61,940 nucleotides of DNA from a virus. Below the pieces are notes generated by a model. That model was not told the DNA's origin. It was given only the letters and a program-made list of their open reading frames with translations, and made no database searches. A program made the position numbers and the translations under genes. Below are positions 3,079-61,940 of the stretch, one piece after another. Position 1 is the stretch's first letter; each line of letters opens with the position of its first letter. The DNA lies in the IMG/VR virus record IMGVR_UViG_3300027645_000001, positions 1 through 61,940 of that record; one strand, given 5' to 3'.

Positions 3079-3084
3079 ACGCTA

Positions 3085-42413: not shown

Positions 42414-43679
42414 GTGGCCGCCGCCGCCCCACAATTGATCCCGCAGGCGAACGCGACGCCGTCGCTTGTCTTTCCGAGCACGACCTCGAGCGGTTTAACG
42501 ACGACGCCCTCCACCGGGCCCACGCCACAGATTGTGCCCACGGTGGGCTCGACCGCGCCTTCCGCCTCGCCCAATACGCCGCTGCCAGGTGCGACGGTGG
42601 CGCCTCCGGGCGGTCCTCCGCCGCCCACCACGCCCTCGAGCCGCGCACCATCCGTCTCGAGCATCATTCCAGGCGCAACCTCGGTGCCCATCAGCGGCAA
42701 TACCACGATCGCGCCGGTGAATCAAAGCGAACTCGTCTCTGGTCAGCTCAACGATATCCTGAAATCAGGCTCGCCCTACACGCAGCTCGCGCGCAGTCAA
42801 GCATTGCAGGCCGCATCCGCTCGCGGCCTTCAGAATTCGAGCATCGCCGCTGGCGCGGGCGAAGCCGCTGCGATCTCGGCCGCGCTGCCTATCGCACAGG
42901 GAAATGCGACCAATGAGCTCACGGTCGAGCAGGCGAATCAGCAAGCGCTCAACACCTCGGCGCAGATCCAGCAGCAGGCCACCGCGACCCAGCAGACGCA
43001 GAAGCAGCAGATTGAGGAGCAAACGCAGTCCACATTGGTCACGCAGGCTGCCGCGCTCACCCAGCAGTTGACCAACACGCTGACCGCTCAGGCGCAGCAG
43101 GGCACGATCAACTTCACCCTGCAGGCCCAAACGGAAGCGGCCAACATCAACCAGATTCTCACGCAGGGCAATGTCAACTCGATGTTGTCGGCGCAGCAAA
43201 GCACGCAGCAGATCCAGCAGATCAACCAGACGAGCCTGGATACGATCAACCAGATTGATTCGCAGGCCAAGGCGAACGCCTCACAGGACGGCCCCGCGTT
43301 GCAGGCCCAATACCTGACTGGCGTGACCAACATCATGAATGCGACGGCGGCCCAGATTCAGGCGATCTACCAGACGACCGGCCTTTCAAGCACCCAGCAG
43401 CAAGCCGCGGTGCTCACTGCGAATCAGCAGATGCAGGAGAACATCAATAATCTTGCAGCCTACTACGCCAGCTCACCGCTGTGGGATACGGGCCAGCAGC
43501 CCACGCCGATCCCGGCGTCCGCGATTCCGAAGCCAGTGGCGCCAGTTGCAACGCTGCCCAGGCCAACGCCCACGCCAACGCGCACGTCCACGCCCGCGCC
43601 CACAGCGCCGACCGCGACCACGCCGACCAGACGATATTCAGGCTATCCGACGACTACGGGCTTTGGGATGCCAGCATGA
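42414..43679 (+). CDS. Gln-rich internal-virion-like protein, 421 aa
   Basis: Track ORF. The GTG start has poor SD spacing, so the start is uncertain. N-terminal QLIP/QIVP/SIIP motifs, then a long Q/T/A-rich helical region. Confidence 0.6.
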   Translation: MAAAAPQLIPQANATPSLVFPSTTSSGLTTTPSTGPTPQIVPTVGSTAPSASPNTPLPGATVAPPGGPPPPTTPSSRAPSVSSIIPGATSVPISGNTTIAPVNQSELVSGQLNDILKSGSPYTQLARSQALQAASARGLQNSSIAAGAGEAAAISAALPIAQGNATNELTVEQANQQALNTSAQIQQQATATQQTQKQQIEEQTQSTLVTQAAALTQQLTNTLTAQAQQGTINFTLQAQTEAANINQILTQGNVNSMLSAQQSTQQIQQINQTSLDTINQIDSQAKANASQDGPALQAQYLTGVTNIMNATAAQIQAIYQTTGLSSTQQQAAVLTANQQMQENINNLAAYYASSPLWDTGQQPTPIPASAIPKPVAPVATLPRPTPTPTRTSTPAPTAPTATTPTRRYSGYPTTTGFGMPA

Positions 43680-44161
43680 TCCGTCACGCACTACTGCAAG
43701 ACGTGCCGGCGATCGAGAAGCTGCTGCTGCGCGCGAAGCGGCGCACTGAGCTTTGCACTGTGAAGGTGAACTTCGAGAAGGGACGCAAAAACATCCGCCG
43801 CTGCATTCAAAGCGCGCTTGGCTTTGCGATGGTGGCCGAGCGCGGGGAGAAGATCACCGGGACACTGCTCGCGATGCAGTGCGAGTATTGGTACTCAAAC
43901 GAGCGCTACGTCACCGATATGGGATTCGTCAGCTACGCGCGCGGGGATGGTCGGCTGCTGCTGCGGCGCTGCCGCTCTTGGGCGGACGCGCATGGTGCGA
44001 AGATGCTGATGGGCACGTTCTCGCTCGATCCAAGGGGCGCGATGCGGCGCGTGTACGAGGGCGAGGGGCTCTATATGGCTGGGCACACGTTCGTGAGTGA
44101 GAAGCCAATCAACGTTCCGAACATAAGGATGGTGCCATGTCACATTTCTTCAACCAGGTAG
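43676..44161 (+). CDS. GNAT-family N-acetyltransferase
   Basis: ATGA overlap. MIRHALLQDVPAIEKLL start and an acetyl-CoA-loop-like YARGDGRLLLRRCRSWADAHGAKML segment. Confidence 0.55.
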   Translation: MIRHALLQDVPAIEKLLLRAKRRTELCTVKVNFEKGRKNIRRCIQSALGFAMVAERGEKITGTLLAMQCEYWYSNERYVTDMGFVSYARGDGRLLLRRCRSWADAHGAKMLMGTFSLDPRGAMRRVYEGEGLYMAGHTFVSEKPINVPNIRMVPCHISSTR

Positions 44162-45078
44162 GAAAAGTTTTCAGTGCAGTGTGGGATTTTATCCGACCAG
44201 TTGTTGAGGTCGTGGCCATCGCGGCTGCGGTTTATTTCACTGCAGGCCTTGCGCTCTCGTACTTTCCGGCCACGGCGGGATTTGCCGCAGCTATGCCGGG
44301 CTTTGCGAGCACCACGGGTGTGGCAGGGGAAGGCGTCTTTAGCTCGCTTGCCAGTTCGATTGGTATGGGCGGCGGCATCCAGGCAGGCGCTGCCGCAGAT
44401 GCGTCCCTAGCCGCTGATGCGGGCTTTGCCACGGCCGCGACGAATGCCAGCGCGGGAATTACCGCCGCTACAGCCTCACCGGCGGCTGACACTGCTGTCG
44501 GTGCGAGCGTTGCGCCCGGTGGCGTTGCAGTGGCTCCGGCGAGTGTCGGTGGTGGCATAGGGACGGCGGCTGCCGCTCCGGCGGCCGTCGACACCGCAGC
44601 CTCCGTTGCCGGCTCGAGTGCATCGGCCGCGGCTGTATCAGGTGCGCTCACCAATAAGCTGCTGCTGGCATCGGTCGGCACGCAGCTGATCTCGGGGCTC
44701 ACCGCCCCTTCGCCGACCGATATCGCCGCGGCCAAGGCCGGCTTCTATGGCTCCTTCTATGGTAAGGATGCGAGCGGCGCCGGCGCACCCACGCCCAATC
44801 TGTCGGTCGGGCCGCAGGCCGAGCTAATATCGCCGCTCGCCTCTGGCGCCCAACCCATTCCTGGCGTCAACGTGCCCAGCGTGCAGAACGCCGCGCCCGC
44901 GCCCGGGCTAGCAGGCTTTCAGGGTGTGCAGCAGGCGCAGTTGATCCCAGCGGTGCCGAGTGGCGCGATGCCCGCGCCTGGCGCTGCGCAGGGTAATCAG
45001 CTCACGGCAGCGGTGCCGTTGGCCAAGCCGCAGCTCATTCCATCAGGGGCGCCTAAGCCGGCGCCTGCGGCCGTATGA
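44137..45078 (+). CDS. Ala/Gly-rich internal-virion-like protein with an N-terminal TM helix, 313 aa
   Basis: AAGGA RBS; TM segment VVEVVAIAAAVYFTAGLALSYF; two QLIP motifs near the C-terminus. Confidence 0.65.
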   Translation: MSHFFNQVGKVFSAVWDFIRPVVEVVAIAAAVYFTAGLALSYFPATAGFAAAMPGFASTTGVAGEGVFSSLASSIGMGGGIQAGAAADASLAADAGFATAATNASAGITAATASPAADTAVGASVAPGGVAVAPASVGGGIGTAAAAPAAVDTAASVAGSSASAAAVSGALTNKLLLASVGTQLISGLTAPSPTDIAAAKAGFYGSFYGKDASGAGAPTPNLSVGPQAELISPLASGAQPIPGVNVPSVQNAAPAPGLAGFQGVQQAQLIPAVPSGAMPAPGAAQGNQLTAAVPLAKPQLIPSGAPKPAPAAV

Positions 45079-46010
45079 TTCCAGTCGCCACCATCCCGCC
45101 GGATCCGGGGCCGCAGACGCCTTCAGCCCCTGGCGTGTCACCGCCCCCGCCTGCGCCCGCCTCACAGCCGCCGCCTGGTTCACCGGGCGCGCAGGCAGGC
45201 CCCGGGCCCCCGCCTCAGAGCCCCGTGGGTCCACCAGGCGCCACGCCCCCATCTCCCGGCGGCGGAGCACCACCTGGTGGCCCCGCGGGTGCTCCGGAGA
45301 CCATGGATCAGGGTGATCCGCGTCCGCGTCTCATTCCCGGTTCAGATGCCACCAGCGGCAACGTGCCGGCGAGCCCGCAGGAGCAGAACGATCTGCGCCA
45401 GACGCTCATCAAGGCCGGCCAGATGATCCACAAGCCTAGCAGCCGCGATGCCGTGCTCAACAGCCTGCATCAGCCGGATATGACCGTGGCACAGGCCGTG
45501 GGGAAAACTGCAGCGCAAATTCTTATGACGGTCGACGGCCAGAAGCAGGCCGTCACGCAAACCGCGCTTTCGCACGACGTGCTCTACCAGGCGGCGCGCT
45601 ACGTGATCCCCGAGCTCATGGATATCGGCATCAGCGCCGGCATCTTCCCGATCAGGCCACCCCCAGGTGGCACGGCGAGCCAAGGCAAGGGCGGCAACGG
45701 CCAGGATCAGGGCCCAGGCGTTGGCAACGATCCGTACAACAAATCGATTCGCATGGCGATGTTGGAAGCCACGAAGGTATATGGCGAGGCACAGCTCAAA
45801 TCCCCAGGCGCGGCGCAGATGACCGAACAGGCGCAGAACGATTGGGCCAATCAGGTGCGCCAGGAGGTGCAGTCTGGCAAGGCCGATCCGCGTTACATGG
45901 CGATGGCAAGACCCGGAGGCGGCGGTGCAGGCCCGCAGGGCGCACCAGCGCCTGGCGGTCCTCCGCAGATCATTCCTAGCGGCCGGGCTGCTCAAGGGGC
46001 GCCTTCATGA
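45075..46010 (+). CDS. Pro/Gly-rich internal-virion-like protein, 311 aa
   Basis: ATGA overlap. RLIPG after the Pro-rich N-region and QIIPSG near the C-terminus. Confidence 0.65.
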   Translation: MIPVATIPPDPGPQTPSAPGVSPPPPAPASQPPPGSPGAQAGPGPPPQSPVGPPGATPPSPGGGAPPGGPAGAPETMDQGDPRPRLIPGSDATSGNVPASPQEQNDLRQTLIKAGQMIHKPSSRDAVLNSLHQPDMTVAQAVGKTAAQILMTVDGQKQAVTQTALSHDVLYQAARYVIPELMDIGISAGIFPIRPPPGGTASQGKGGNGQDQGPGVGNDPYNKSIRMAMLEATKVYGEAQLKSPGAAQMTEQAQNDWANQVRQEVQSGKADPRYMAMARPGGGGAGPQGAPAPGGPPQIIPSGRAAQGAPS

Positions 46011-47104
46011 GGACCAACAGCGGCCTGAACTGGTCAAATATCTCCGCTGGCTTCGCTGGCGCAAGTCAGGGCTTATCGCAGGCCGCCGACATCAAGGCGC
46101 GCGAGCAGCTTGAGGAACTCCGAGACCAGCGCGCAGCGAACCTTGCGCGCATGACCTTCGGCTGGAAGGCGCAGCACGACGTGAACATGCTCGAGCGTAC
46201 GGAGGCCGGCGCCAACATTCGCGCCCAGGCCTCGGAGACCGGCGCAAACATTCGTTCTGCCGCTCAAATCGCCGGCCAGAAGGAGACCACCGCGCGCGAA
46301 TACCAGATGCAGCTCAAAGGCCAGGAAAACTACCTGACCAGAATGAATCAGATGAACGAGTACAACCGCGCGCGCGATGAATCCAAGCAGAGCGCTGAAA
46401 ATGAGCTGAGACAGCAGGGGCTACGCGCCGCGAATCGGCAGGAAATGCAGCGCATGACCCTGCAGTATGAACAGGAGATTCGCAAGATCGACCAGGCCAT
46501 CAGTGTGTCCGCCAAAGAACACGAATTTGAATTGCCCGATCCCAAAGATCCGAGCTATGACGCGGTCGCGGCAAGGCATCCGGAACTCGGCAAATTGCTA
46601 GAGCAGCGCGCCGAACTCGGACAGCAGAAAACCATCGCCCTGTATAACTACACGATGGCGGGCGCCCAGCTTGGGGATAAGGATTTCATGGGGGCAAATC
46701 AGCCGTTGCCCCCGGCAGCGCCTTCAGGCGCAGCGCCCTCGCTGATACCCAGCGGCGGCGGTACTGCTACGCCAAACAATCCGCTCGAGCCTTCCGCCCA
46801 GCTGCCACGCTATCCTGGGATGAATCCAGCCGACAACGTGCCTGCGACTGCCGCACCTCCCCCTAGCGGCCCCACTGCCGGCTCCGCTGCCGGCAGATCG
46901 GCGCCTACCTTCGCGCCACCGCGAGCGCCCATAACGAGCATGGTGGGCCCGCTCATGAGCCCGCCGCAAATCATCCCGGGGCGAGCCTTGCAAAGCCAAG
47001 CCCCGATGCCTGGCGTCAACATGCCAGCAGGGGCCGGTGCGTTTCCCGGTATCGGCAATCCTATGGGCGCGCCGCCCTCGCTGATCCCGCAACAGGGATA
47101 CTAG
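46007..47104 (+). CDS. Coiled-coil internal-virion-like protein, 365 aa
   Basis: ATGA overlap. SLIPSG, QIIPG and a terminal SLIPQQGY. Confidence 0.65.
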   Translation: MRTNSGLNWSNISAGFAGASQGLSQAADIKAREQLEELRDQRAANLARMTFGWKAQHDVNMLERTEAGANIRAQASETGANIRSAAQIAGQKETTAREYQMQLKGQENYLTRMNQMNEYNRARDESKQSAENELRQQGLRAANRQEMQRMTLQYEQEIRKIDQAISVSAKEHEFELPDPKDPSYDAVAARHPELGKLLEQRAELGQQKTIALYNYTMAGAQLGDKDFMGANQPLPPAAPSGAAPSLIPSGGGTATPNNPLEPSAQLPRYPGMNPADNVPATAAPPPSGPTAGSAAGRSAPTFAPPRAPITSMVGPLMSPPQIIPGRALQSQAPMPGVNMPAGAGAFPGIGNPMGAPPSLIPQQGY

Positions 47105-47108
47105 GTCC

Positions 47109-50100
47109 GTGGCCGATTTTCCGGACTCGGCGCCGGATTGGATCAAGCAGCTTCAGACAGCTCCTGGTCCCACCGCTGACACGCTGCAAGTTCAAAGTCC
47201 AGCCAATGGGCTGTGGTACACGCTGCCGCGGATACCGGACGACTTCAAGGCGCCCCCCATGCCGCCGCCACCGCCCCCGCCAGGGCCTGGGCTTTTCGAG
47301 CGCGCATGGGATACCGCCAAGGCGATCCCTGGCGAGGCGATGGCCCAGATCAGCCCCTCTGAGGCCTATCACGAGAACGTCGCAGCCGATGCAGCGCGTT
47401 GGACGCAGGCGCATCCCGACAGCCTGTTAACTGAGGTCGCGCGGCATAGCCTAGGACTGATCCCGGGAGCAGCGCCCCTGGTCAGCTCGATGGTCAACCG
47501 GGATTCTGCGATCTGGCCTGAGTCGCCTGAGCAGCAGGCCGACATCGCCGCACGTGCGGCGGCGCCGGCGCCGGGCTTTCTTGAGGGCCTGAAGAACGCG
47601 GCCACGCTATTTCAGGAGCACCCGGGCGCACTCGTCGGCCAGCTCATTCAGCAGACGGCCGAGAATCCGCAGTACCTGATCGGCGGGGATCTCGGCTTGA
47701 CCGCGGCAGCAGCGCGCATCGCCAAGAGCGCGGGAGCCGCGGACGCTGCGGCCAAGACGGCAGGAGCTCTGGGACGTGTCGCAGGCCAGTCGGGCAGCTT
47801 TGCCGCGCTCACTGCCGGCACCGAAGCGGTCCACGAAGCGGGCGCAGGCGCGCTTGATCCGGAGAAGATCAAGGAAGCTGGCGAGCAGGGCGCGGTCATT
47901 GGTCCTGCGGTCGATAGCATCCTGCGTCTGGCGAGCGGGCGGCCGGTGATGCGTGTCACCCTCGATGAGCTTAAAAAGGGCCTGGATCGCGGCCCGCAGC
48001 CCGCCGCCGGCGAGCCATTGCTCGAAGGGCCACCAGGCAGCACCGGAGGCGGTGGCGGCGCAGCGGGCGCCCCAGCGGCTCCCAGCGCCCCTACCGGCAC
48101 GCTCTCTCAGCTCGCCACGCGAGCGCGCGAAGCAGGAGTCGCCCCGGAGGACATACACCCAATCATGGCCGATCGGTTGCGGCGCAATATCTCGGATGAC
48201 GAGGCACGCACACAGGTTCAGCACCTCATCGATGCGGCGACCGTCGCGCCGGCAAGGACGGCGGCGAAGGCACCAGAGCGCAAGAAGGAGGAGACGCCAA
48301 AAGAGGAAGTGACAGAGCCCGCGACCGCGAGTAAAGTCGCTGAGTCTCCCACGCAGCCCTCGTCCGAGGCGAAGGCCGAAGAACAGACCGCCAGGGCAGA
48401 AGGCCCAGCGGCTGGCGAGCAAGCTGGCGCCCCGGCCCCTGCTGCAGCGGCCGGCGGCGCGGAGCAATCACCAAAACCAAATGAGGCGCAGACGCCTCAG
48501 ACTGGCGACGTATGGCGCGTCGGGTTTGCTGGCGATGAGGGACGCAAGGAGCCCTACGAACTGACGGTCGGCGGTGGTCGGATGCTCGCGCGGCAGGAAG
48601 GCGCCGGTGACGACGTGCCGTTTGTTGATGTGACACCGAGGGCCGGCGAGTCGCTGCAGGATGCGCTGGTCAGGAAACTAGCGCCCCCGCATGGCGCAGA
48701 ACAGCAGATCGAGGCGGTGCAGCGACCTGCGGCTCCGACGCCCGACGAGCACGGGATCGTCAAGACGAAAGTTGCCGGCCAGCCGGTTGAGATCGCCCAT
48801 GCGCCGACTCCCCTGCAAGAACAGGCTGGAAACTTCAAGCAGGGACACATAACGATACCGTTAGATGGCGGCATCCCGGTCACTGTGCAGAAGGCCGCAG
48901 GCATGCAGCGCAGCGGCGTCGATCAGGACGGCAAGACCTGGACGTCCACCCTGAAGCACGACTATGGGTACGCGAAAAGGACGATTGGCGCCGACAAGGA
49001 ACCGATCGACGTTTTCGTAGGGCCAAACCCAGAGTCGAAGCGTGCCTACGTTGTCGACCAGAACAGCGTCAAAACCGGCGATTTTGACGAGCACAAATTA
49101 ATGCTCGGATTCAATTCGCGCGAAGCTGCCAGCGATGCCTACCTGTCTAACTATCCCAAGGGCTGGACCGGCCGCGGCCATGTCACGCCCATGTCAATCG
49201 AACAGGCAAAGGACTGGCTCGATAATGGCGATACGAAGGCGCCGGCGCACGGCCAACAGTTGCTGCCGGCGGCTCCCGCGGCTATAGTCGCACCATCACA
49301 ACCTGAGAAACCAGCGATAGGCCCACCGGAGACAGCTCCGGCAGCGGGCGCGGTAACTGAAACACCCCCGCAGCAAACAGCGGAAGCTGCGGGGGCAATC
49401 CCAGAAGAACCATCCACGCTTCGCGGCCAACTCGCGGCCAAACCCGCCGAGGCACCGGCGCCTGAAGCCGTCGCGCATCCGCCAGCCCAGTTGCCGCATG
49501 TCGAGGGTGGCCTGTCTGAGCCAGAGCGCAAGGTTGTCGCCGATCTGGGCGCAAAGCTGTCCGTCGGTGCTCTGACCGCCAAGGATGCCCGCGGCGTCTA
49601 CGAGCAACATGTGGGCGAGAAAGCCATCGGCGCCCACGCCAAGCGAGCCGAGGAGCTCACCGAGCTCGCCGTGGTGCATTCAGCGCGCGACGTCGTCACC
49701 AGTGCCCCGGTCCCGCATGAGGCGTTCGATAAGCTCGTCGATCTGTACGGCCGTCAGCCCACTTTCGGTACCCGCACGTCCACGAGCGTCGAACAGCAGG
49801 CGTATTCGACGCCAGCTCCGCTCGCTTATGTCGCAAGCCATCTCGCAGGCATCACTCCATCGACGACGGTACTCGAGCCGACAGCGGGCAATGGGATGCT
49901 GCTCATGGCTGCCAGCCCAAAGAATGCGACCGTCAATGAGCTGAATCCATCGCGGGCGGCGGCGCTTCGCGAACAGGGCTTTAACGTCACGACCAAGGAT
50001 GCGGTGCGTGCGGACTTTGGGCCGCCAGTCCAGGCGGTGATCGCGAACCCTCCGTTTGGCGTGGTTCGAGACGAGTCGGGTGCGTCGCGCAACTTTAGCG

Positions 50101-53100
50101 TTGAGATGCCAGCTGGCAAAGCTTTCGAGACGCACGAGATCGACCACGCTATTGCCCTCCACGCTCTGGACTCGATGATGGACGACGGTCGCGCCGTGCT
50201 CATCATCGGCGGCATCAATAAGCTCGCGCGCACCGAGGAAGCCCGATCGGATGCCTACAACGGCGCCGCGAAGCGCAAATTCTTCTACGCCCTGCATCAG
50301 AACTATAACGTCGCCGATCACTTTACAGTGGCGGGCGAGCTCTACGCCAAGCAAGGGGCGGCTTGGCCCGTAGACGTTGTCGTGATCGCAGGGCGCGGCA
50401 AGAGTGCCAAGGTGCTGCCAGCCGTGGAAGTGCCGCGGGTGTATAATTCGTGGGCGGATTTAAAGCCGCTGTTGGATCAAACCTATGAGCAGCCTCATCG
50501 CATGGAGCCCAGTGTCGGAGAGCAACGGCCCTCTGATATTCAGCGTGCAGCTCCACCCGCAGCAGAAGCTGGACACACTGCTGTACCTGGGCCTGTTATC
50601 CGACCGAGTGCAGGGGATGCTGGACCGGAGCCAGGACCAGAGCGAGGCGTCGAACCAGTTGCAGGACATCCTGGAGTCGGGCGGGGTGTGGCCAGGCCGG
50701 ATGAAACTGCGGGAGGGCTCGGAGGCGAACGACCTGGTGGCGTCGAACCCGAGCCTGCTGCGCCGCCTGCGCCAGTTGGGCCTGCCGCAGAACCTGCAGG
50801 ACTCGAACCTGGTGGAACAGCTCTCGGCAAAGCAGCAGATATTGGCGGACAAGGCGGAGCCGCGCAGCCGCCTGGAGAGCTGGGCGAGCGCCGTGTCCCA
50901 AATGCGTTAATCGAAGGGCCGCAGCAACCCTACGAGCCGGCCAGTAGAGAAGGCGCGATCGGCACGCTGGTGCCGACCAACATGCGCACGGCGATCGGCA
51001 CAGCGCTCGATAAACTGCAGGATAAAGTCGGGCCCGTAGATCGTTACGTCGCCCAGGAGCTTGGCTATTCCCCGGAGGAGATCGGCAGGTACTTCTCAGC
51101 CGAGCAGCTCGATGCGCTGGGCCTTGCGCTCTCGCAGATGAAATCCGGCAAGGGCTTCATCATCGGGGATCAAACAGGCATCGGTAAGGGGCGCGTGGTG
51201 GCCGGCGTGATTCGCTGGGCGCTCAAAAACGGTCAGACGCCGATCTTCGTCACCGAGAAGCCGAATCTCTACGCCGACATGTACCGGGATCTGACCGATA
51301 TTGGGGTGCAGGATATTCGTCCCGTGATGACCAATGGAGCGGAGAAGGTGCCGCTCGATGATGCCGGTAACGTCACGCTGCGAACGCCAAGCTCCGAGCG
51401 CCACAACGCTCTGATGAGCGAGATGGCCGCCAAGGCTGACCTTGGCGAGCACAACATGATCTTCACCACTTATAGCCAGATGCAGACGCTCAAAGGCGCG
51501 ATGACGCCGCGCATGCAGTTCCTGGCCGCTTTCGCGCCCAACGGCGTGACAATCTTCGACGAGTCACACAACGCCGGCGGCACGGACGTGGGGGGACGTG
51601 CGAAGAAGGCCGACCAGGAGCAAGGCAAAACCGGCCGCGCAGGTTTTGCGCGTCACCTGGCCAAGCTAGCCAAGGCCGTGTTCTACAGCTCGGCGACCTA
51701 CGCCAAGCGGCCGAGCGTGATGGACCTGTATTTCAAGACCGACATGGCGATGGCGGTCGACAACGATGTGAAGAAGCTGCCCGCGGCGATCACTGCCGGC
51801 GGCGTGCCCTTGCAGCAAGTCGTGGCTTCCATGCTCTCGGATGCCGGTCAATACATCCGGCGCGAGCGCTCCTTCGCAGGCGTTGAATACAACACGCCCG
51901 TCGTGCCGGTAGATCGTAAGGCGGCCGAAGCAATTTCGGCGGTAATGCTCGCCGTCAAACAGTTCGACGATATCAAGCAGATCGCGCTCAAGGGGATCAA
52001 GAAGGAACTCAAGCGCGAAGCGGGCGCGCTTGCCGCCGATCAAGCGCTAAGTCCTTCGTCTACCAACTTCACCTCGGTCATGCACAACCTGATCGATCAG
52101 ATGCTGCTGGCGCTTAAAGCCGACGCGGCGGCGGATCTTGCCATCGAAGCCATCAAGCGCGGAGAACACCCAGTCGTCACCGTGGCGAACACGATGGGTT
52201 CGTTCCTGGAGAGCTACGCCGAGGAGGCGGGGCTCAAGAACGGGGATGCGATGGCGCTCTCCTTCGGCAATCTGATGGCGAGATATCTTGAGCGCTCGCG
52301 CGACGTCACGACCAAGGCCAACGACGGCACTGTGACGCGGCGCCAAATCCTGGATGAGGAACTCGGGCGCGAAGGCGTGGCCAAGTACGAGGCGGTCAAG
52401 GAGCTCATCAAGCGCACACCGGGCCTTAAGGGCGTGCCGGTCAGCCCGATAGACTGGTTGCACTACCGCCTCAATAAGGCCGGCTACAAGACCTCGGAGA
52501 TCACCGGCCGCACGCACACGCTGCGCTATAGCGACACCGATAAGCACCCGACCTATCAGCTGCGCGGCTCCAAGGAGACCTCGATCGCCGGGCGCCGGCG
52601 CGCGATCATGGGCTTCAACAGCGGCGCGCTCGATGCGCTGATCATCAACCAGGCAGGAGCCACCGGCCTATCGCTGCACGCTTCTGAGAAGTTCAAGGAC
52701 AAGCGCAGACGGCGCATGGTGATCGCCCAGGCCGAGCGCAATATCGACACGCACATGCAAATGCTCGGGCGTGTGCATCGCACCGGCCAAGTGGTGGCGC
52801 CGGCGTACGACCAGCTCGTCGCCGATATCCCTGCCGAAAAGCGCCCCGCCGCAGTGCTCGCAAAGAAAATGGCGAGCCTGAACGCCAACACGACGGGGGC
52901 GCGCTCGAGTCAATTCTCTGCCAAGGACACGTTGGACTTCGACAACCAGTACGGCGATGAAGCGGCGGCCTCAATGATGGAGGACATGCCGGAGATCCAC
53001 GAGATGCTCGGCGAGCCGCTCAAGGACACCGACACGGGATTGGAGCGCGATGGCGCGGCGCGCAAGGTGTCGGGGCGCCTACCGATGCTCGAGGTGACGC

Positions 53101-56100
53101 AGCAGGAGGCGTTCTATGAGCTGTTCGCGCAGAACTTTCAGGAGTTGCTCGATCGCGCCAATGCGCTGGGCGAGAACGCTCTTGAGGCGAAAACGCTCGC
53201 GCTCGATGCAAAGCCTGTGTCAAAGACTGAGCTCTTTCCGGCCAAGGTAGCCACCGACAGTCCCTTCGGCGCCGGCGCCTACGCGAACACGATGGACGTC
53301 AAGCGGCTGGGTAAGCCCTACACCAGCGAGCAGGTGCGTGAGCGGCTAGCGGAAAACGCCGGTTTCGGCAAGGAGGAGGCAACGCGCCACGACATCCATG
53401 CGGCTCTGCGCGAGCAGTGGCGCGAGCGCGTCGAGAAGAACATGGATGACTTTCAGACCTATCTGACGGCCGAACGGGCGAAGATGGCCGATTCGGACAT
53501 GAAGGAGGAAGCGCAGGAGGGCCGTGTTGCGATGCTCACGCAGCAGGCAAGCCAGTGGCACGAGATGGCCAAGGAGCTCGTGCCGGGGAAAATGTATAGC
53601 CTACGCACGCCCGAGGGCACGACGTACTACGCGGTGCTACAGAAGATCGAGCGCAAGAAAGGCGTGAGGATGCCCACAGCGCGTGGCTCATGGCTTGCGC
53701 ACTTTGATGTGGCCGACGGCATGCGTGAGATCACCTTCCCGTTTTCCAAGCTCTCGACCGATCTGGATACCGTCGGCGGCCTGGGCAAGGTGCAGGTCGA
53801 GCGAGCCTCACATCACGACATCACGCGCACAGACATCATGCAGCTGTTCGACGAAGGTCAGACCGTCAGCCGCGAGAAGCGCGTGCTCGTGACGGGCAAC
53901 CTGCTCGCCGGCTTCAGCAAGGTCGGCCGCGGCCAGATTGCCAACTTCACCGATCACGAGGGCAATATCCAGCAGGGCGTGCTCATGCCCCGCAGCTTTG
54001 ACCTTGCAAAGTTCGCTGAAAGCCAGCCCGTGCAGCTCACCAGCGAGCAGGCTGGGCGCTTCCTCGAGGACGTCGGCCAGGGGATCGTGCGCAGCTCGGA
54101 CAACGTCGTGACGATCAGAAACTACGGGCCGAATCTGCTGCTGCAGGTGCCACGCTCGAAAGCGGAAGGCGGTAAGTATTTCCTCGACCAGGGGCTACGC
54201 GACATCGTTGGCGACTTCACCAGCGGCTCGAGCTCGATGCGCGTCACCTTTGATCGGGACCAGCTGCCGGCGGTACTCAGCGAACTATCGAGCCGGTTCG
54301 ATCAGAAGTTCTACACCGACACGTTCAAGGAGGAGGCGCAGAAGGCCGGGGGCTCGGTGCTGGGTCAGGCGAAGAAGCAGGCCACCTCTTATGCGCGTCC
54401 AGCGCCGACGCTGCGCCGCGCGATCGAGGCACGCCGCGCCACGAAGCTCGCCCCGAACGTGGCAGATTACTTGAAGCGCGTTGAGACGGCGCTGCGCGGA
54501 CATGCCCAGGTGCAGGTGCATGCGAACCCGAAGGAATTTGGAGAAGCCATTGATCAGGACGTACCACCGGATGTCGCCGGCGCCTACACCTCGGACGACG
54601 GCACCTTGCACTTCGTCGCCTCTAATCTGCCGGACGTGGCCGCAGCTCAAGCGATTTTCCGTCACGAGGGCTTTGGCCACCTCGCGATGGAGAAGTCACC
54701 GGACTTCGAAAAAGCGCTGGCGATGGTCGGACAACTGCGAAAAATGGGTGGAGCGAAGATCAAGCGACTGTATGACGACGTGGAGCGTCGATATCCCGGA
54801 GCGGACAATACCACCCTGTCAAAGGAGGTAATCGCCACGATGGCCGAGCGTGGCGTCAAGAACGCCATCGTCGATCGAGCTATCACCGGGGCGCTCTCGC
54901 TGCTGCGCAAGATGGGTATTGAGACGCCGCCGGCCGAGGCTGAACTGCGGCAGATGATCGTACAGGCCGCTCGCGGGCTACCGGTCGAAGCCAGGGCGCT
55001 CTCAGGACTCGATCGAGTGGAAGCCTACGCGGCCGAGGCCCACGTACAGGCAGGGCGCGAGGGCGCCGCCATGGACGCGCTGGGCCGCGTGCTGCCCGAA
55101 TCGGATGCGATCGACGCTCTGAGCGCCGCCAAGCGCGCCGGCAATACCCGGGCGATCGAGATCCTCAAGGATCTGCAGGACGATGCTTCGGTCGGGGATA
55201 ACGACAATCCTCCGCTGATCGAGGACGCCTACCATCCGGTGGAGGCTTCCATTCCACGCGAAGTGCTCTTTGCGCGTCACGCGCCGATGGACGCGGAGAC
55301 GAAAGCTGCGCGCGACAAGGTCATGGACCCGGACGGCCGCGATGACATGACGCTGCGCGACCGCCAACGTCTGGGGCTCGCAGCCCTTCGCAAGGTCGAT
55401 GGCACCGCGATCAAGCAATACTGGATCGATGACCTGGCGAGCATCGCGAAGTGGGAGCGCGAGATCAACGGCGGCAAGCTCAAGGCCGGCGAGGAGAGCC
55501 CGCTCAAGGCCGCGCGCAGCGTGCGAAATCTGGCGAGCCAGATGGCAGCGGTGCTCGAGGTAGGCATCCCGGAGCACAAGGACGGGGTGTTTCAGGTGGT
55601 CCCCGGTCGCCTGGGGCTCAAAAAGGTTTTCGAGCCGTTGAGCACCAATCCCGACGGCAGCCTGATCAGGCATTTCGAGCTCTATGCAGCCGCGCGACGT
55701 GCTTTGCGCCTCATCAACGAGCGCAATCGCGACGGCACGCTGCGGGAAAAGAACTTCACGCAGACCGAGATCGATGCGGGTCTGGCGCTCGCCAAGAAAT
55801 ATCCCGAGCTCGAGCGCGTATTCCATGATCTGCAGGAGGTTTGGACGCAGCTACTCGATCTAGGCGAGTCGGCCGGCACGATCGATCCGGAAGCCAGAAG
55901 GATCTACGAGAGGTTCGATTATGTCCCCTTCTATCGCGCGGAGGAGGAGCTCGCCGGCGAGCGTCCGAGCGGCGGCCGATCACGCGGCGGACTAGCGAAC
56001 CAGCGTGAGATGAGCGGCAGGCTTACGGGCAAGGCGGCCCCGCTGCGCAACATCCTCGAGAACGTGATGATGAACATTGCGAACCAGATGGATGCGGCGC

Positions 56101-57971
56101 AGAAAAATATCGCCACGCTGAAGGCGGTCGACCAGTTTCAAAACACGTTTGCCTTTAAGGTGCCAAAGGAAGTCGAGGCCGTCCACGTCAGTAACGATCA
56201 GATCGAGCGTGCCATGAAGAACATGGGGCTCAATCTAGACCCAAACATGACCGAGTCGCAACGCGAGAGCTGGACGCGCTTCTTCCGGCGCGTGGCTCCG
56301 ACCGATCGCAACGTGATCCGTGTGATGCGTGACGGTAAGCCTGAATATCACCGCATCCTCGACCCGCTCGTATTGGACGCGCTCACCTCCATCCAGGGCT
56401 CACCCAAATGGCTGCGTGATCTGGATAAGCGCCTTTTCGGGATGCTCTCAGGGCCGAAGCGCTTTTACACCGCGATGTCAACCGCGACCCCGATGTACAC
56501 CGCCAGGCGCTTCCTGCGCGTGATGTTCGATACCGCGATCCAGCAGGGCGGCATGGTGGGACTGCTGACCAACGCGCATCGCGACTTTTACGATTCGATC
56601 ACGGGGCACAAGGACCTCTACGACATGATGATGGCCGGCGCGGGAGGCGCGCAGGGCTACGATCAGGATCCCGAGCGCGTGCGCCGCATGCTCATCGATT
56701 CGTACAAGGGCGGCAATAAAACCGATTACCTCACGAGGGCGGCCAATCCTAAAAACTGGTGGAAGGTGTGGCGAGCGATCCAGAACGCTTCGAAGAACGA
56801 GCACATGCTGCGTGTCTATCGTGCCGCTCGAAAGCAAGGGGCATCCGTAGCCGAGGCTGCTTTCCGCGCACGCGACATCGAGGACCTGTCGATGCATGGC
56901 GGTGGCGCTATCATGCAGTTCATCAATCGCACGGTGCCCTTTCTCAACCCGCGCATCCAGGGCACCTACCGCATGGCACGCGGCTTTAAGGACAACTGGC
57001 GCGGCTACGCGATCCGCGGCGCCATGGTCACGGCGGCCACGCTGGGCCTGCAGGCCTACAACTGGGATAACCCGCGCTATCAAGAACTCCCGGAGTGGGA
57101 AAAGGATATGTCTTGGCACGTCTTCATAGGCGATCACCACTTCATGCTGCCCAAGCCCTTCGAGCTCGGGCTGATCTTCGCGACGCTGCCTGAGCGCTTG
57201 GTCTCGGCCGGCATGCACGCGATGGGCAAACCAGGCGGCGACACCGCAGGAGAATCGATCGATGCGGCCAAGCGCGCCGTGCTCGATACCTTTGCCTTGA
57301 ACCCGGTACCGCTGGTGCTGCGCCCCTTGCTCGCGCAGGCCGTGAACGTCAACGCCTTTGGCAACAAGATCCTGACCGACAAGGAGGCTGCTCTAGCGCC
57401 CCAGGAGCAGTACAACGACTATACGAGTCCCATGATTCGCGCGATTGCTGGCAACCTACCTGGCAAGTACAGCTACACGCTCAACTCGCCGGCGCGTCTG
57501 CAGGCGCTTGTGCAAGGCTATACCTCAAGCCTTGGCATCACCCTCCTCGATGGCGCCGATCGGCTCACACGGCGCGGCTTAGGGTATCCGGATGCACCTT
57601 CGAGCTCGGTGATGGAGTCGGCCTTCAAGTCGTTCTACCAGTCGGGCGAGCCGACCACGACGAAGTACACCCCTGAGCTCTACGACTTTCGCGAGCAGGC
57701 GGACAAGGCCTACAACACTCTCATGGCGCTCTCGGCCGATCATCGGATGAAGGAAGCGCGCGCGTACCTGCAGGACAACAAGAAGCTGCTGCAACTGCGC
57801 CCCATGCTCAACGCACTTGGCAAGGACATGAAGGAGCTGAATAAGCAGCAGGCCATGGTGATGGAGAGTACCAACCTCACCGCGGATCAGAAAAAGGCAC
57901 GCATCGATAAAATCACGGCGCAGAAGAACGCCATTGCCCGCCACGTCGCGCCGTTCGAGGACTATTTCTGA
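47109..57971 (+). CDS. Giant polyvalent protein (3620 aa): pyrophosphatase-like module, N6-adenine-type MTase, strawberry-notch-like SF2 helicase, and a long C-terminal region. Probable capsid-packaged/ejected protein.
   Basis: A single uninterrupted ORF. Motifs and coordinates are in the sub-features. It lies between the internal-virion-like genes and terL. Confidence 0.85.
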   Translation: MADFPDSAPDWIKQLQTAPGPTADTLQVQSPANGLWYTLPRIPDDFKAPPMPPPPPPPGPGLFERAWDTAKAIPGEAMAQISPSEAYHENVAADAARWTQAHPDSLLTEVARHSLGLIPGAAPLVSSMVNRDSAIWPESPEQQADIAARAAAPAPGFLEGLKNAATLFQEHPGALVGQLIQQTAENPQYLIGGDLGLTAAAARIAKSAGAADAAAKTAGALGRVAGQSGSFAALTAGTEAVHEAGAGALDPEKIKEAGEQGAVIGPAVDSILRLASGRPVMRVTLDELKKGLDRGPQPAAGEPLLEGPPGSTGGGGGAAGAPAAPSAPTGTLSQLATRAREAGVAPEDIHPIMADRLRRNISDDEARTQVQHLIDAATVAPARTAAKAPERKKEETPKEEVTEPATASKVAESPTQPSSEAKAEEQTARAEGPAAGEQAGAPAPAAAAGGAEQSPKPNEAQTPQTGDVWRVGFAGDEGRKEPYELTVGGGRMLARQEGAGDDVPFVDVTPRAGESLQDALVRKLAPPHGAEQQIEAVQRPAAPTPDEHGIVKTKVAGQPVEIAHAPTPLQEQAGNFKQGHITIPLDGGIPVTVQKAAGMQRSGVDQDGKTWTSTLKHDYGYAKRTIGADKEPIDVFVGPNPESKRAYVVDQNSVKTGDFDEHKLMLGFNSREAASDAYLSNYPKGWTGRGHVTPMSIEQAKDWLDNGDTKAPAHGQQLLPAAPAAIVAPSQPEKPAIGPPETAPAAGAVTETPPQQTAEAAGAIPEEPSTLRGQLAAKPAEAPAPEAVAHPPAQLPHVEGGLSEPERKVVADLGAKLSVGALTAKDARGVYEQHVGEKAIGAHAKRAEELTELAVVHSARDVVTSAPVPHEAFDKLVDLYGRQPTFGTRTSTSVEQQAYSTPAPLAYVASHLAGITPSTTVLEPTAGNGMLLMAASPKNATVNELNPSRAAALREQGFNVTTKDAVRADFGPPVQAVIANPPFGVVRDESGASRNFSVEMPAGKAFETHEIDHAIALHALDSMMDDGRAVLIIGGINKLARTEEARSDAYNGAAKRKFFYALHQNYNVADHFTVAGELYAKQGAAWPVDVVVIAGRGKSAKVLPAVEVPRVYNSWADLKPLLDQTYEQPHRMEPSVGEQRPSDIQRAAPPAAEAGHTAVPGPVIRPSAGDAGPEPGPERGVEPVAGHPGVGRGVARPDETAGGLGGERPGGVEPEPAAPPAPVGPAAEPAGLEPGGTALGKAADIGGQGGAAQPPGELGERRVPNALIEGPQQPYEPASREGAIGTLVPTNMRTAIGTALDKLQDKVGPVDRYVAQELGYSPEEIGRYFSAEQLDALGLALSQMKSGKGFIIGDQTGIGKGRVVAGVIRWALKNGQTPIFVTEKPNLYADMYRDLTDIGVQDIRPVMTNGAEKVPLDDAGNVTLRTPSSERHNALMSEMAAKADLGEHNMIFTTYSQMQTLKGAMTPRMQFLAAFAPNGVTIFDESHNAGGTDVGGRAKKADQEQGKTGRAGFARHLAKLAKAVFYSSATYAKRPSVMDLYFKTDMAMAVDNDVKKLPAAITAGGVPLQQVVASMLSDAGQYIRRERSFAGVEYNTPVVPVDRKAAEAISAVMLAVKQFDDIKQIALKGIKKELKREAGALAADQALSPSSTNFTSVMHNLIDQMLLALKADAAADLAIEAIKRGEHPVVTVANTMGSFLESYAEEAGLKNGDAMALSFGNLMARYLERSRDVTTKANDGTVTRRQILDEELGREGVAKYEAVKELIKRTPGLKGVPVSPIDWLHYRLNKAGYKTSEITGRTHTLRYSDTDKHPTYQLRGSKETSIAGRRRAIMGFNSGALDALIINQAGATGLSLHASEKFKDKRRRRMVIAQAERNIDTHMQMLGRVHRTGQVVAPAYDQLVADIPAEKRPAAVLAKKMASLNANTTGARSSQFSAKDTLDFDNQYGDEAAASMMEDMPEIHEMLGEPLKDTDTGLERDGAARKVSGRLPMLEVTQQEAFYELFAQNFQELLDRANALGENALEAKTLALDAKPVSKTELFPAKVATDSPFGAGAYANTMDVKRLGKPYTSEQVRERLAENAGFGKEEATRHDIHAALREQWRERVEKNMDDFQTYLTAERAKMADSDMKEEAQEGRVAMLTQQASQWHEMAKELVPGKMYSLRTPEGTTYYAVLQKIERKKGVRMPTARGSWLAHFDVADGMREITFPFSKLSTDLDTVGGLGKVQVERASHHDITRTDIMQLFDEGQTVSREKRVLVTGNLLAGFSKVGRGQIANFTDHEGNIQQGVLMPRSFDLAKFAESQPVQLTSEQAGRFLEDVGQGIVRSSDNVVTIRNYGPNLLLQVPRSKAEGGKYFLDQGLRDIVGDFTSGSSSMRVTFDRDQLPAVLSELSSRFDQKFYTDTFKEEAQKAGGSVLGQAKKQATSYARPAPTLRRAIEARRATKLAPNVADYLKRVETALRGHAQVQVHANPKEFGEAIDQDVPPDVAGAYTSDDGTLHFVASNLPDVAAAQAIFRHEGFGHLAMEKSPDFEKALAMVGQLRKMGGAKIKRLYDDVERRYPGADNTTLSKEVIATMAERGVKNAIVDRAITGALSLLRKMGIETPPAEAELRQMIVQAARGLPVEARALSGLDRVEAYAAEAHVQAGREGAAMDALGRVLPESDAIDALSAAKRAGNTRAIEILKDLQDDASVGDNDNPPLIEDAYHPVEASIPREVLFARHAPMDAETKAARDKVMDPDGRDDMTLRDRQRLGLAALRKVDGTAIKQYWIDDLASIAKWEREINGGKLKAGEESPLKAARSVRNLASQMAAVLEVGIPEHKDGVFQVVPGRLGLKKVFEPLSTNPDGSLIRHFELYAAARRALRLINERNRDGTLREKNFTQTEIDAGLALAKKYPELERVFHDLQEVWTQLLDLGESAGTIDPEARRIYERFDYVPFYRAEEELAGERPSGGRSRGGLANQREMSGRLTGKAAPLRNILENVMMNIANQMDAAQKNIATLKAVDQFQNTFAFKVPKEVEAVHVSNDQIERAMKNMGLNLDPNMTESQRESWTRFFRRVAPTDRNVIRVMRDGKPEYHRILDPLVLDALTSIQGSPKWLRDLDKRLFGMLSGPKRFYTAMSTATPMYTARRFLRVMFDTAIQQGGMVGLLTNAHRDFYDSITGHKDLYDMMMAGAGGAQGYDQDPERVRRMLIDSYKGGNKTDYLTRAANPKNWWKVWRAIQNASKNEHMLRVYRAARKQGASVAEAAFRARDIEDLSMHGGGAIMQFINRTVPFLNPRIQGTYRMARGFKDNWRGYAIRGAMVTAATLGLQAYNWDNPRYQELPEWEKDMSWHVFIGDHHFMLPKPFELGLIFATLPERLVSAGMHAMGKPGGDTAGESIDAAKRAVLDTFALNPVPLVLRPLLAQAVNVNAFGNKILTDKEAALAPQEQYNDYTSPMIRAIAGNLPGKYSYTLNSPARLQALVQGYTSSLGITLLDGADRLTRRGLGYPDAPSSSVMESAFKSFYQSGEPTTTKYTPELYDFREQADKAYNTLMALSADHRMKEARAYLQDNKKLLQLRPMLNALGKDMKELNKQQAMVMESTNLTADQKKARIDKITAQKNAIARHVAPFEDYF
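48831..49210 (+). other. Domain: inorganic-pyrophosphatase-like module of polyvalent proteins (approximate bounds)
   Basis: Motifs GYAKRTIGADKEPIDVFVGPNP and FDEHKLMLGFNSREAASDAYLSNY. Family recalled from memory. Confidence 0.4.
49761..50400 (+). other. Domain: amino-methyltransferase (motif I VLEPTAGNG 49869..49895; motif IV NPPFG 50046..50060)
   Basis: Motifs read in frame. Confidence 0.8.
50930..52910 (+). other. Domain: strawberry-notch (Sbno)-like SF2 NTPase/helicase core
   Basis: GFIIGDQTGIGKGR (51165..51194), IFDESHNAGG (DESH 51558..51569), GATGLSLHA, and QMLGRVHRTGQ (52776..52790). Confidence 0.75.
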
Positions 57972-58021: not shown

Positions 58022-59446
58022 ATGGACTTTTCGGCCGATTGCTACTACGACCCGCTCACCTGGGTGCTTGGCATCTATCCTTGGACAAAGCAGGGTACGT
58101 TCCTCGCCAAGGAGCCCGGGCCCGATGTGTGGCAGATCGAGGCGCTGCGCGCAGTGGGCACCGAGGCGCTGCTGGTTGACACGGGGAGAGCCGCGACCAA
58201 CGCGGTGCAGATGGCGATCGGCTCGGGACACGGCGTGGGCAAGGGCGCGCTGCTGTCCTGGGTAATCCCCTGGTGGCTATCCACGCGCCTGCGGCCGCGC
58301 ATGAACTGCACCGCGGGCACCGATACGCAGTTGAAAACAAAGCTGTGGCGCGAGATCAACAAATGGAACTCCGTGGCGGCCAACGGGCATTGGTTTAGCT
58401 GGGCCGCGCAGTCCTTCAAGCTACGCGAGAATCCGCTCGCGGTTGCAGACGCCATCCCGTGGAGTGAGAACAATCCGCACGCGGTCGCAGGCCTTCACGA
58501 GGGCGATCCGGCCGTGATCATGGACGAGGCGAGCACGGTGGCCGATATCATCTGGACGACGCTCGAGGGCGCCTTCACAACGCCCGGTGGCCTTTGGATG
58601 GCCTGCGGGAATCTCACCGAACCATCCGGTAAATTTTACGATTGTTTCAAAAGCAACCGCAAATACTGGCTGACCTTCAATATCGATGCGCGCACGGCTC
58701 GCAAGGCCGACAAGGTGCGCATCGCACAGTGGCAGGACCAGTACGGGGAGGATAGCGACTTCTTTCGCGTTCGCGTGCTGGGCCAGGCGCCCAAGGGCGG
58801 GGCAACGCGCCTGTTCACCGCTGAGCTGCTGGACGCCGCCGTTGCGCGCGTGATCGAGGAGGACTGGCTGCACGATGAGACCCCGCTGGTGATGGGGATC
58901 GACCCCTCCGGGGGCGGGGAGGCTGTGACAGCGATTGCGCTGCGCCGAGGCCCAATCTTGAAGGAGATCATCCGATTCTCCGAATCGAACCACATGCGCT
59001 GCGCGAGCCTGATCGCGGGCTATCTTTCGAAGTACAAGCCCGACTACGCCTTCATCGACTGTCATGGCTTGGGTAAAGGCATCTTTGATCGCCTCAAGCA
59101 ATTGGGCTACCCGCAAGTCATGGAGGCCTATGGGGGGGATCGCTCGGCAGTAGTCGACAAGCTCAATTATTACAATCCGAGGGCAGAGTGGTGGGGCCGC
59201 ATGGCCGAGTGGCTGCGGGTATCTAAAATCCCGAATGACCGGGACCTGCGCGATCAGCTCCTGGGTCAGCCGATGGAGCGCCGGCAGATGCGGCTGCAGC
59301 TAATGTCGAAGGATGACATGCGCAAACTGGGCCTTGTAAGCCCTGACACTGGCGATTCAGTGAGTCTCACCTTCGCCGAGCTCGTGAGCGTCAAACGCGG
59401 TGCGACATCCGTGGCTATAGAGGGCGGCCTGCCAGCCTTCACGTGA
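58022..59446 (+). CDS. terL: Terminase large subunit
   Basis: Walker A MAIGSGHGVGKG, Walker B AVIMDEAS, and nuclease-domain segments VMGIDPSGGG and ...AFIDCHGLG. Confidence 0.85.
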   Translation: MDFSADCYYDPLTWVLGIYPWTKQGTFLAKEPGPDVWQIEALRAVGTEALLVDTGRAATNAVQMAIGSGHGVGKGALLSWVIPWWLSTRLRPRMNCTAGTDTQLKTKLWREINKWNSVAANGHWFSWAAQSFKLRENPLAVADAIPWSENNPHAVAGLHEGDPAVIMDEASTVADIIWTTLEGAFTTPGGLWMACGNLTEPSGKFYDCFKSNRKYWLTFNIDARTARKADKVRIAQWQDQYGEDSDFFRVRVLGQAPKGGATRLFTAELLDAAVARVIEEDWLHDETPLVMGIDPSGGGEAVTAIALRRGPILKEIIRFSESNHMRCASLIAGYLSKYKPDYAFIDCHGLGKGIFDRLKQLGYPQVMEAYGGDRSAVVDKLNYYNPRAEWWGRMAEWLRVSKIPNDRDLRDQLLGQPMERRQMRLQLMSKDDMRKLGLVSPDTGDSVSLTFAELVSVKRGATSVAIEGGLPAFT

Positions 59447-61650: not shown

Positions 61651-61940
61651 ACTTTCAACTCCAGCCCCTTGAGACCCTTGCCGCTACCGGCATCACCGGC
61701 CTACTGATCTCGATCGGCGCCAAAGGCAACGCAGCAACGCTGGTCAAGCGCGCGAACGCCTATCTCGCGGTCGCTGCCGCCGTCGGCGCGGCCCAGACCG
61801 GCGACGTCAATAGCCTCATCGCCACGCTCACGACCGTGATCAGCACGTCGAATCTGGACCCCGCTGAAGGTCTCGCATTGACCGGATTACTGACGGCCAT
61901 CGTCAATCAGTTGGCCATGGGCAAGGCTGTGGCCGGGACC
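61647..61940 (+). CDS. 5-prime part of the junction-spanning ORF (continues at base 100 of the window)
   Basis: ATGA overlap with 61333..61650. Its last 99 nt are the terminal repeat. Confidence 0.6.
   Translation, partial: MNFQLQPLETLAATGITGLLISIGAKGNAATLVKRANAYLAVAAAVGAAQTGDVNSLIATLTTVISTSNLDPAEGLALTGLLTAIVNQLAMGKAVAGT
61842..61940. repeat. Right copy of the 99-bp terminal direct repeat
   Basis: Identical to 1..99. Confidence 0.97.

Follow-up and report, generated by a model that had tools for sequence, protein, structure and literature searches.

The locus described here raises the question of what a viral protein of 3620 amino acids does, and whether it acts from the capsid or in the cytoplasm of the infected cell. 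It is encoded by IMG/VR virus record IMGVR_UViG_3300027645_000001, an uncultured phage that was analyzed from position 1 to 61,940 (hereafter the window, 61,940 nt). One open reading frame (ORF) on the plus strand, 47109..57971, begins with GTG and continues for 10,863 nt (3620 codons) with no internal stop in the ORF listing. A first-pass annotation had named its product a polyvalent protein with pyrophosphatase-like, methyltransferase and helicase domains, lying where short-tailed phages encode a large ejected virion protein. We consider it likely that this is an LPD38-class polyvalent protein that is packed via a conserved frame and leaves the virion with the DNA. Nothing sets it apart from the other members of its family, which is very large and has already been described.

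Polyvalent proteins were defined by Iyer, Burroughs, Anand, de Souza and Aravind (2017, J Bacteriol; PMC5512222), who regard InPase and LPD38 as domains of phage polyvalent proteins only. Both domains are present in the window protein, which bears out its designation, and together with AAA_34 and Helicase_C_4 they are the Pfam domains that score above their curated cut-offs. Unrelated activities (at least two are expected) are joined in one polypeptide, namely InPase, an N6-adenine DNA methyltransferase (MTase), a Strawberry-notch (Sbno) ATPase and a HEXXXH peptidase-like domain, and the gene is the last of the late/structural block, in keeping with the position of phage-type polyvalent proteins among late and virion genes. 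The window protein thus has in common with those of Iyer et al. several unrelated enzymatic domains, the MTase-ATPase dyad, the HEXXXH variant and the late-gene location. There is no categorical difference from them, and its order of N-terminal region, InPase, MTase-Sbno, HEXXXH peptidase and LPD38 is one of many variants.

The family is defined by the C-terminal module, its chassis (aa ~2720-3620, 55266..57968), which is all-alpha and contains Pfam LPD38 (PF18857; aa 3322-3488, 57072-57572; E=8.5e-32, 111 bits against a cut-off of 27). An AlphaFold2 (AF2) model of the module is almost entirely alpha-helical (pLDDT 71, pTM 0.67) and, when compared with BFVD, matches viral LPD38 proteins with TM values of 0.6-0.76, all of them C-terminal pieces. 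Residues 2640-3620 were used as the query in an exhaustive HMMER/phmmer search of 50%-identity cluster representatives, which returned 7,429 representatives at E<=1e-3 and 2,495 at E<=1e-30. Among the listed matches the module is almost always the last part of a protein of 2,000-5,600 aa, and the phmmer alignments are ~850-980 aa long in 150 of the 150 listed representatives, well beyond the 189-position Pfam core. The module likewise ends 0-75 aa before the stop in all 80 of the IMG/VR loci compared (in the window it ends at the stop), within reading frames of mostly 2000 to >4200 codons, a few being shorter, on contigs of typically 50-70 kb.

The rest of the protein is far less constant. When 13 family giants were sampled and scanned with Pfam, LPD38 was found in every one and InPase in nine, along with Sbno ATPase (three giants), ddrB-ParB (three), LPD1 (two), RadC (two) and ART, GNAT and an Eco57I-type MTase (one each). 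The C-terminal module, often accompanied by InPase, is therefore the constant part and the middle is variable cargo. The same division appears when individual relatives are aligned. The two nearest relatives are 72% identical over residues 2432-3620 (P0021) and 67% identical over 2446-3620 (P0022) and also share residues 1-771 and 1-718, respectively, but neither shares residues 791-2436. P0027 and P0030 share residues 791-2436 as one block at 54-56% identity, whereas their C-terminal block is 36-38% identical. Because the nearest relatives lack this cassette (aa 791-2436, 49479..54416) and it is found at higher identity in frames that are less closely related, it has been exchanged between frames. 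The alignments indicate a discrete cassette and recombination at low-complexity linkers. The first-pass annotation had singled out the fusion of an MTase-helicase to an apparent structural ejection protein as something special, but thousands of proteins have this architecture as standard.

A connection to the virion comes from two homologues in cultured phages. The C-terminal module is homologous to that of gp47 (vb_24B_48, ~2810 aa) of Stx phage phi24B (hhalign 98.9%, E=2e-17, 677 columns), a similarity at the profile level only, as gp47 was not found by tblastn at E<=1e-3. The giant gene of phi24B closes a podovirus structural block after several small genes, as in the window. Both proteins have a peptidase or peptidase-like domain, although gp47 carries LPD5, LPD1, LPD38 and a MuF-C peptidase and is devoid of InPase, MTase and Sbno ATPase. 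A 2026 preprint reports by proteomics that gp47 is abundant in purified virions and that it is absent from the cryo-electron microscopy map, and its authors propose that gp47 is a packaged ejection protein. The second homologue is gp25 of Escherichia phage PTXU04 (2197-2198 aa), which matches residues 2710-3614 with 29% identity over ~900 aa (tblastn E=3e-96) and has the same predicted fold (BFVD E=7e-52, TM 0.73). Its gene occupies the same slot, last in the structural block and preceded by a series of genes for small proteins. The protein has only LPD38 and no confidently annotated cargo domain, and in a CRISPRi-ART knock-down it was critical for efficient infection. Further relatives, with modules that are 24-29% identical, occur in podophages of Vibrio, Aeromonas, Achromobacter, Thalassomonas, Bacillus and Pelagibacter, and in Achromobacter CF418P1 the same placement and an InPase are combined with a different middle part. 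The position at the end of the late block and the homology to phi24B gp47 and PTXU04 gp25 lend indirect support to the suggestion that the gene occupies the slot of an ejected virion protein.

In addition to the LPD38 module, the constant parts of the protein are an N-terminal region, InPase and a peptidase-like domain. The Ala/Gly/Pro-rich N-terminal region (aa 1 to ~430, 47109..48398) has no Pfam match over aa 1-430 and is conserved with the two nearest relatives, with BLASTP identities of 49% over 1-433 (P0022) and 38% over 1-771 (P0021). Many family giants (P0024-P0091) have a glycine-zipper-like hydrophobic stretch in their N-terminal 450 aa, such as MVIGALVGGVLGGPAAVAL or AVIGGLVGGVMGGSITPLV, and the equivalent region of the window protein is weakly hydrophobic (best 19-residue Kyte-Doolittle mean 0.92). 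P0008 and P0010 had pointed to an N-terminal 'FPDS' motif, which was rejected as a general feature, as it was found in only one of 123 long family members, the window protein itself.

The InPase, a type I inorganic-pyrophosphatase-like domain of the polyvalent-protein clade (aa 570-704, 48816..49220), matches Pfam PF18823 with E=1.2e-45 (155 bits against a cut-off of 26.8). The two motifs that the first-pass annotation gives for it are both in frame, ADKEPIDVFVGP at 48990-49025 and FDEHKLMLGF at 49083-49112. The signature D-x-D-P-x-D is represented by D-K-E-P-I-D-V, in which D, E and D are kept, and the pattern Y-G-[FY]...D-x-[DE]-P-I-D-V aligns with the motif DNDPIDV of the plant pyrophosphatase 5ls0, a weak match (E=0.85). 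An InPase domain is also found at the C-terminus of the Pa193 portal gp19 sequence (PDB 9B41, 9b41_L; E=2e-26), and a fusion of InPase to the portal has been noted for BcepF1 (Iyer et al. 2017, PMC5512222).

Upstream of the LPD38 module lies a zincin-like metallopeptidase domain of the HEXXXH variant (aa ~2449-2619, 54453..54965) with the motif HEGFGH at 54663-54680 (residues 2519-2524). The pattern HE..GH is shared by 42 of 44 distinct relatives. In an alignment of 18 sequences H100, E101, G104, H105 and two downstream glutamates, E154 and E161, are invariant; a downstream Glu is the third ligand expected in this variant. An HEXXXH variant of the zincin-like peptidase, with a zincin core, has been described (Iyer et al. 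2017, PMC5512222). In the AF2 model, most of whose core has a pLDDT of ~85-96, the elements are ordered helix-strand-helix-strand-strand-helix(HEGFGH)-helix, so that the motif is on the first of two helices that follow a three-stranded sheet, a topology that fits the described zincin core. No PDB sequence was matched in a profile search, and MATCAP was a weak local Foldseek match to the model. A zincin fold of this domain is consistent with the model but not proven by it.

The cargo of the window protein begins with an EcoKI/HsdM-like N6-adenine DNA MTase (aa 820-1143, 49566..50537), in which motif I, VLEPTAGNG (49869-49895), precedes motif IV, NPPFG (50046-50060), in the gamma-class order, both in frame. 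It was matched by the PHROG family for DNA MTase (2.5e-8) and by PADLOC mad2 (5e-7), and Pfam N6_Mtase stayed below its cut-off (E=0.032, 14 bits against 20.4). When a profile built from ten relatives (A4) was searched against PDB, it retrieved the type I HsdM subunits EcoR124II M (7.3e-10), EcoKI M (4e-6) and StySJI M (9e-6); motifs I and IV (NPPF) are invariant in this profile. The MTases of polyvalent proteins have been assigned to an EcoKI/TaqI-like family (Iyer et al. 2017, PMC5512222). A Gly/Pro/Ala/Glu-rich linker follows (aa 1144-1290, 50538..50978), recognized by its composition and without a Pfam family match; P, G and A together make up 54% of residues 1201-1300, so the Pro/Gly linker proposed earlier is real.

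Beyond the linker is a Strawberry-notch-type superfamily 2 (SF2) ATPase (aa 1345-2022, 51141..53174), in which both Pfam components exceed their cut-offs: AAA_34 (PF13872, aa 1345-1605; E=1e-25, 90.7 bits against 27) and Helicase_C_4, the Sbno C-lobe (PF13871, aa 1795-2022; E=7e-29, 101.8 bits against 30.5). ResIII also matches in this region (E=1.3e-5). The motifs are the P-loop GIGKGR within GFIIGDQTGIGKGR (51153-51194), DESH (51558-51569) and GRVHRTGQ (52767-52790). Every motif quoted in the first-pass annotation is thus in frame, but two of the start positions given there need correction, from 51165 to 51153 for the P-loop and from 52776 to 52767 for GRVHRTGQ. The profile searches back both the MTase and the Sbno assignments, and no RNA polymerase family was matched in Pfam, in agreement with the earlier reading that such motifs are absent. 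The same cassette occurs in gp3 of Bacteroides phage BS-TP4 (5391 aa), which matches residues 555-2030 over InPase, MTase and Sbno (34.5% identity in the aligned pieces, which cover 59% of the query).

The ~1700 aa that follow the helicase motifs had been left as a single stretch with no nameable motif, but they can be divided into an Sbno-linked extension, the HEXXXH peptidase-like domain and the LPD38 module. The extension (aa 2023-2436, 53175..54416) has no Pfam match and was delimited from BLASTP blocks of relatives; it travels with the Sbno ATPase, the blocks running from 1272 to 2418-2434 in P0004, P0007, P0011 and P0016. A relative named 'PLxRFG domain-containing' by NCBI (P0003) shares only residues 1292-2631. 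NCBIfam had no match to the giant protein, and Pfam searches of seven unassigned segments at E<=5 gave nothing meaningful. A sub-segment of the extension (aa 2252-2403, 53862-54317) is also found, at 35-36% identity, at the N-terminus of two primase-type proteins (P0014, P0015) that are otherwise unrelated and have Toprim_2, DUF3991 and DUF6908 domains. From these alignments it looks like a small mobile domain.

Directly upstream of the giant gene, on the same strand, four ORFs (42414..47104) encode proteins of 421, 313, 311 and 365 aa that are rich in A, P, G, Q and T and match no family in HMM scans. These low-complexity proteins had been recognized earlier from their composition, and they are candidate co-packaged internal proteins. 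They contain nine copies of the motif [P/A]-[Q/S/R]-[L/I]-I-P-[S/G/A/Q/T], one of which forms an extreme C-terminus (PPSLIPQQGY), and the giant protein has one 'LIP' copy near residue 117. Of 12 [LI]IP matches in the ~20,200 aa encoded by the genome, 10 are within this five-gene block (42414-47104 and 47109-47500); 18203-19327 is also among the window regions with the motif. The motif is kept in the equivalent proteins of two relatives (L092:3637-7991 and L091:5981-7997), as SQPQLIPTAP, RPRLIPGTD, KPQLIPTVP and SPQLIPNDG. The motif may mark a site of cleavage or serve as a peptide for docking to the capsid or portal.

Taken together with the predictions of Iyer et al. (2017, PMC5512222) for polyvalent proteins in general, namely virion packaging, processing by the metallopeptidase (MPTase) and a DarB-like role of an MTase-SWI2/SNF2 dyad, of which they note Sbno-type versions, these observations suggest the following course of events. 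The giant protein would be made late, along with the four low-complexity proteins, and would be incorporated into the capsid through its conserved frame, which consists of an Ala/Gly-rich N-terminus, usually an InPase, and a C-terminal block of ~1,200 aa (the HEXXXH peptidase-like domain and the ~900-aa LPD38 module). It would then exit through the short tail before or with the DNA, the C-terminal module having an essential ejection or structural function, and the peptidase-like domain may cut the polyprotein at its Pro/Gly/Ala linkers. The cargo, in this case a predicted HsdM-like N6-adenine MTase fused to a Strawberry-notch SF2 ATPase, would track the incoming DNA and methylate or otherwise shield it ahead of host restriction enzymes, following the logic of P1 DarB. 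The InPase might remove pyrophosphate or a nucleotide-type signal.

Several points weigh against this account. Packaging, ejection, cleavage, methylation and anti-restriction are ascribed to the window protein by inference from its homologues and the Iyer et al. framework. The role of the module in ejection goes back to the proposal of one preprint and to the essentiality of PTXU04 gp25. The AF2 model of the module has no significant match in PDB (Foldseek, best E=0.83), including any solved ejection protein, and the module is for this reason considered unlike the ejection proteins of T7 (gp16), P22 and N4. The best local PDB match of the peptidase model, to the minigluzincin jannalysin (4jix), has a probability of 0.72 and is not significant (E=1.2). 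No helix of the giant protein resembles a transmembrane segment at a 19-residue Kyte-Doolittle mean of >=1.6. BLASTP of residues 791-2440 against DarB (2255 aa) gave at best E=0.57, over a 36-aa stretch at MTase motif I only, and the target and activity of the MTase are putative. The anti-restriction step, taken by itself, is therefore possible but somewhat doubtful, as its sole basis is the analogy with DarB, with no detectable homology.

The analogy leads to the first of three alternative explanations. P1 DarB, like the window protein, has an EcoKI-family N6-adenine MTase and an SF2 helicase-like ATPase in one polypeptide, and it is located inside the head and protects incoming DNA against type I restriction (Iyer et al. 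2017, PMC5512222). The ATPase of the window protein differs in being of the Strawberry-notch type, and P1 is a myovirus. DarB has no InPase, HEXXXH peptidase or LPD38, and DarA and Hdf are needed for its packaging. The giant protein could be packaged as a non-essential anti-restriction passenger of the DarB type, with the C-terminal module as a capsid-targeting tag that has no part in ejection. The shared MTase-helicase dyad fits this explanation, as do a match of phrog_10089 ('DarB-like antirestriction') to residues 212-714 and the lack of structural resemblance between the module and known ejection proteins. However, a mere tag of ~900 aa would hardly be kept in >7,000 clusters and be critical for infection in a member that has no recognizable effectors, which argues that the module has a function of its own, and the comparison made with DarB in the first-pass annotation stands as an analogy of logic but not as homology. 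We regard a dispensable passenger as unlikely.

A cytoplasmic role in place of packaging of the giant protein is a second alternative and also seems improbable. A late enzyme that is left out of the virion could methylate progeny genomes before they are packaged, with the adjacency of terL reflecting a link to packaging. An MTase and an SF2 translocase could indeed act on replicating or packaging DNA, and the giant gene directly precedes the large terminase subunit gene (terL, 58022..59446, plus strand), as the first-pass annotation had stated. This gene begins 50 nt downstream and was identified by phrog_2 (E=1e-25) and by tblastn, its product being 36-40% identical to TerL of Vibrio, Ralstonia and Pseudomonas podoviruses. 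A role in 'DNA metabolism' was also the guess of the authors who described a 495-kDa protein that takes up 19% of the 62-kb genome of Klebsiella Lastavirus podophages. Yet terL is adjacent in only one of 80 related loci, with one more having it 7.6 kb downstream; 'giant gene then terL' was accordingly rejected as a family rule, as it holds in that one locus and in the close relatives L001 and L092. The nearest relatives lack the MTase-helicase and keep the rest of the protein, and the module is found in proteins without any DNA enzyme, such as PTXU04 gp25, which has LPD38 alone and is still needed for infection. The module is, moreover, shared with a protein that has been physically detected in virions, phi24B gp47.

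The third alternative, in which the long ORF would be a chimera made during assembly or several genes read through as one, might be prompted by its unusual size, by a GC content of ~63%, which lengthens chance ORFs, and by its long low-complexity linkers, but it can be dismissed as extremely improbable, because the identical ORF is present in independent assemblies and in a public protein set, its domains share one frame with HMM support over the whole length, and homologues of every segment recur, in unchanged order, in other giants of 2,900-4,700 aa. The identical 3620-aa protein is encoded by four metagenome contigs of ~61.9-62.0 kb, two of which, from different ENA assemblies, have no mismatches to the window over 15-17 kb, and an exhaustive search found the exact protein already in the public set (P0020). 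This leaves practically no room for an artefact of assembly or a frameshift, and the gene is confirmed as real and intact. The GTG start is 4 nt past the stop of the upstream gene, and AGGGA lies ~11 nt upstream of it. An exact 99-bp direct repeat at the window ends (1-99 and 61842-61940), as is usual for circular or terminally redundant assemblies, leaves 61,841 bp of unique genome, and the ORF accounts for 17.6% of this, as had been estimated. A megablast search with the ORF as query had no match among 50,697 phage records, and we conclude that there is no close cultured relative. Around the gene, promoter-like sites in a sigma-70 scan were at background level, and terminator-like sites were somewhat above it (22 against a shuffle mean of 14.5, sd 3.7), with no site that marks a gene boundary.

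With the ORF established, the preferred reading of a packaged polyvalent protein can be set in its gene neighborhood. The portal (28927-31227; Pfam SU10_portal 4.6e-25, phrog_1216) is followed by the major capsid protein (32897-33892; phrog_1357), two tail-size ORFs of 669 and 836 aa, the four small ORFs, the giant gene and terL. The window proteins scanned had no match to a tail tube, sheath or tape-measure family, and the gene order resembles that of a short-tailed phage. A gene flanked by the tail-size genes on one side and the low-complexity block on the other encodes a 162-aa Thr/Ala-rich protein (41266-41754) with a signal-peptide-like hydrophobic helix at its N-terminus, IIAGVTAFFLTWAMMAVAT. 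Just upstream of the portal gene, a 561-aa protein (26398-28083) matches glycoside hydrolase family 26 (1.2e-11) and family 5 cellulase (5e-5); its role may be that of a polysaccharide depolymerase associated with the virion, and its location before the portal is unusual. The contig of P0022 (L092) has the window order of small proteins, giant, TerL-like protein and SLT protein along with an integrase (L092:21389-22414), and P0021 lies inside a 344-kb bacterial contig (L091); the closest relatives therefore look temperate.

The comparison with T7 gp16 and N4 gp50 that the position of the gene had invited extends to its surroundings. As with those genes, it is the largest gene of the virion module and is preceded by smaller genes for internal proteins, an arrangement analogous to T7 gp13-gp16. 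The window protein differs from both in that Pfam finds neither an RNA polymerase nor a lytic transglycosylase domain in it. In T7, lytic transglycosylase activity resides in gp16. In the window an SLT lytic-transglycosylase domain is encoded by a separate gene downstream of terL (296 aa, 60391-61281; PHROG 'lytic tail protein' 4e-15, Pfam SLT in the contig annotation), and the relative L092 is arranged likewise. N4 gp50 has a zincin-like peptidase within the C-terminal region that its encapsidation requires (Iyer et al. 2017, PMC5512222). Homology of the C-terminal block of the window protein to this encapsidation region of the N4 virion RNA polymerase was considered and rejected, as both hhalign and BLASTP against the C-terminal 1400 aa of gp50 were empty. 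A more general proposal, which we put forward tentatively and hold to be doubtful, is that the HEXXXH peptidase and LPD38 module form a universal ejection chassis of a very large group of short-tailed phages, with no structural kinship to the ejection proteins of T7, P22 and N4. Cassettes would be swapped onto it by recombination at low-complexity linkers, and the P-Q-L-I-P peptides of the four upstream proteins and of the giant protein's N-terminus would be a shared signal for co-packaging or cleavage, as a docking motif or a peptidase site.

The concept of polyvalent proteins, the domains found here, the genomic slot and the hypothesis of virion ejection have all been published before. The 900-aa LPD38 module is kept in >7,000 clusters and has no solved structural relative, and for work on its role phi24B, PTXU04 and Lastavirus, which have been cultured and share the module, are better test systems than the window phage. 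The window protein adds one example of an MTase-translocase dyad that may be placed to reach the DNA first. The contrast between its constant frame and its exchanged payload also reveals clean, natural cassette boundaries in this family, which would be useful for engineering.

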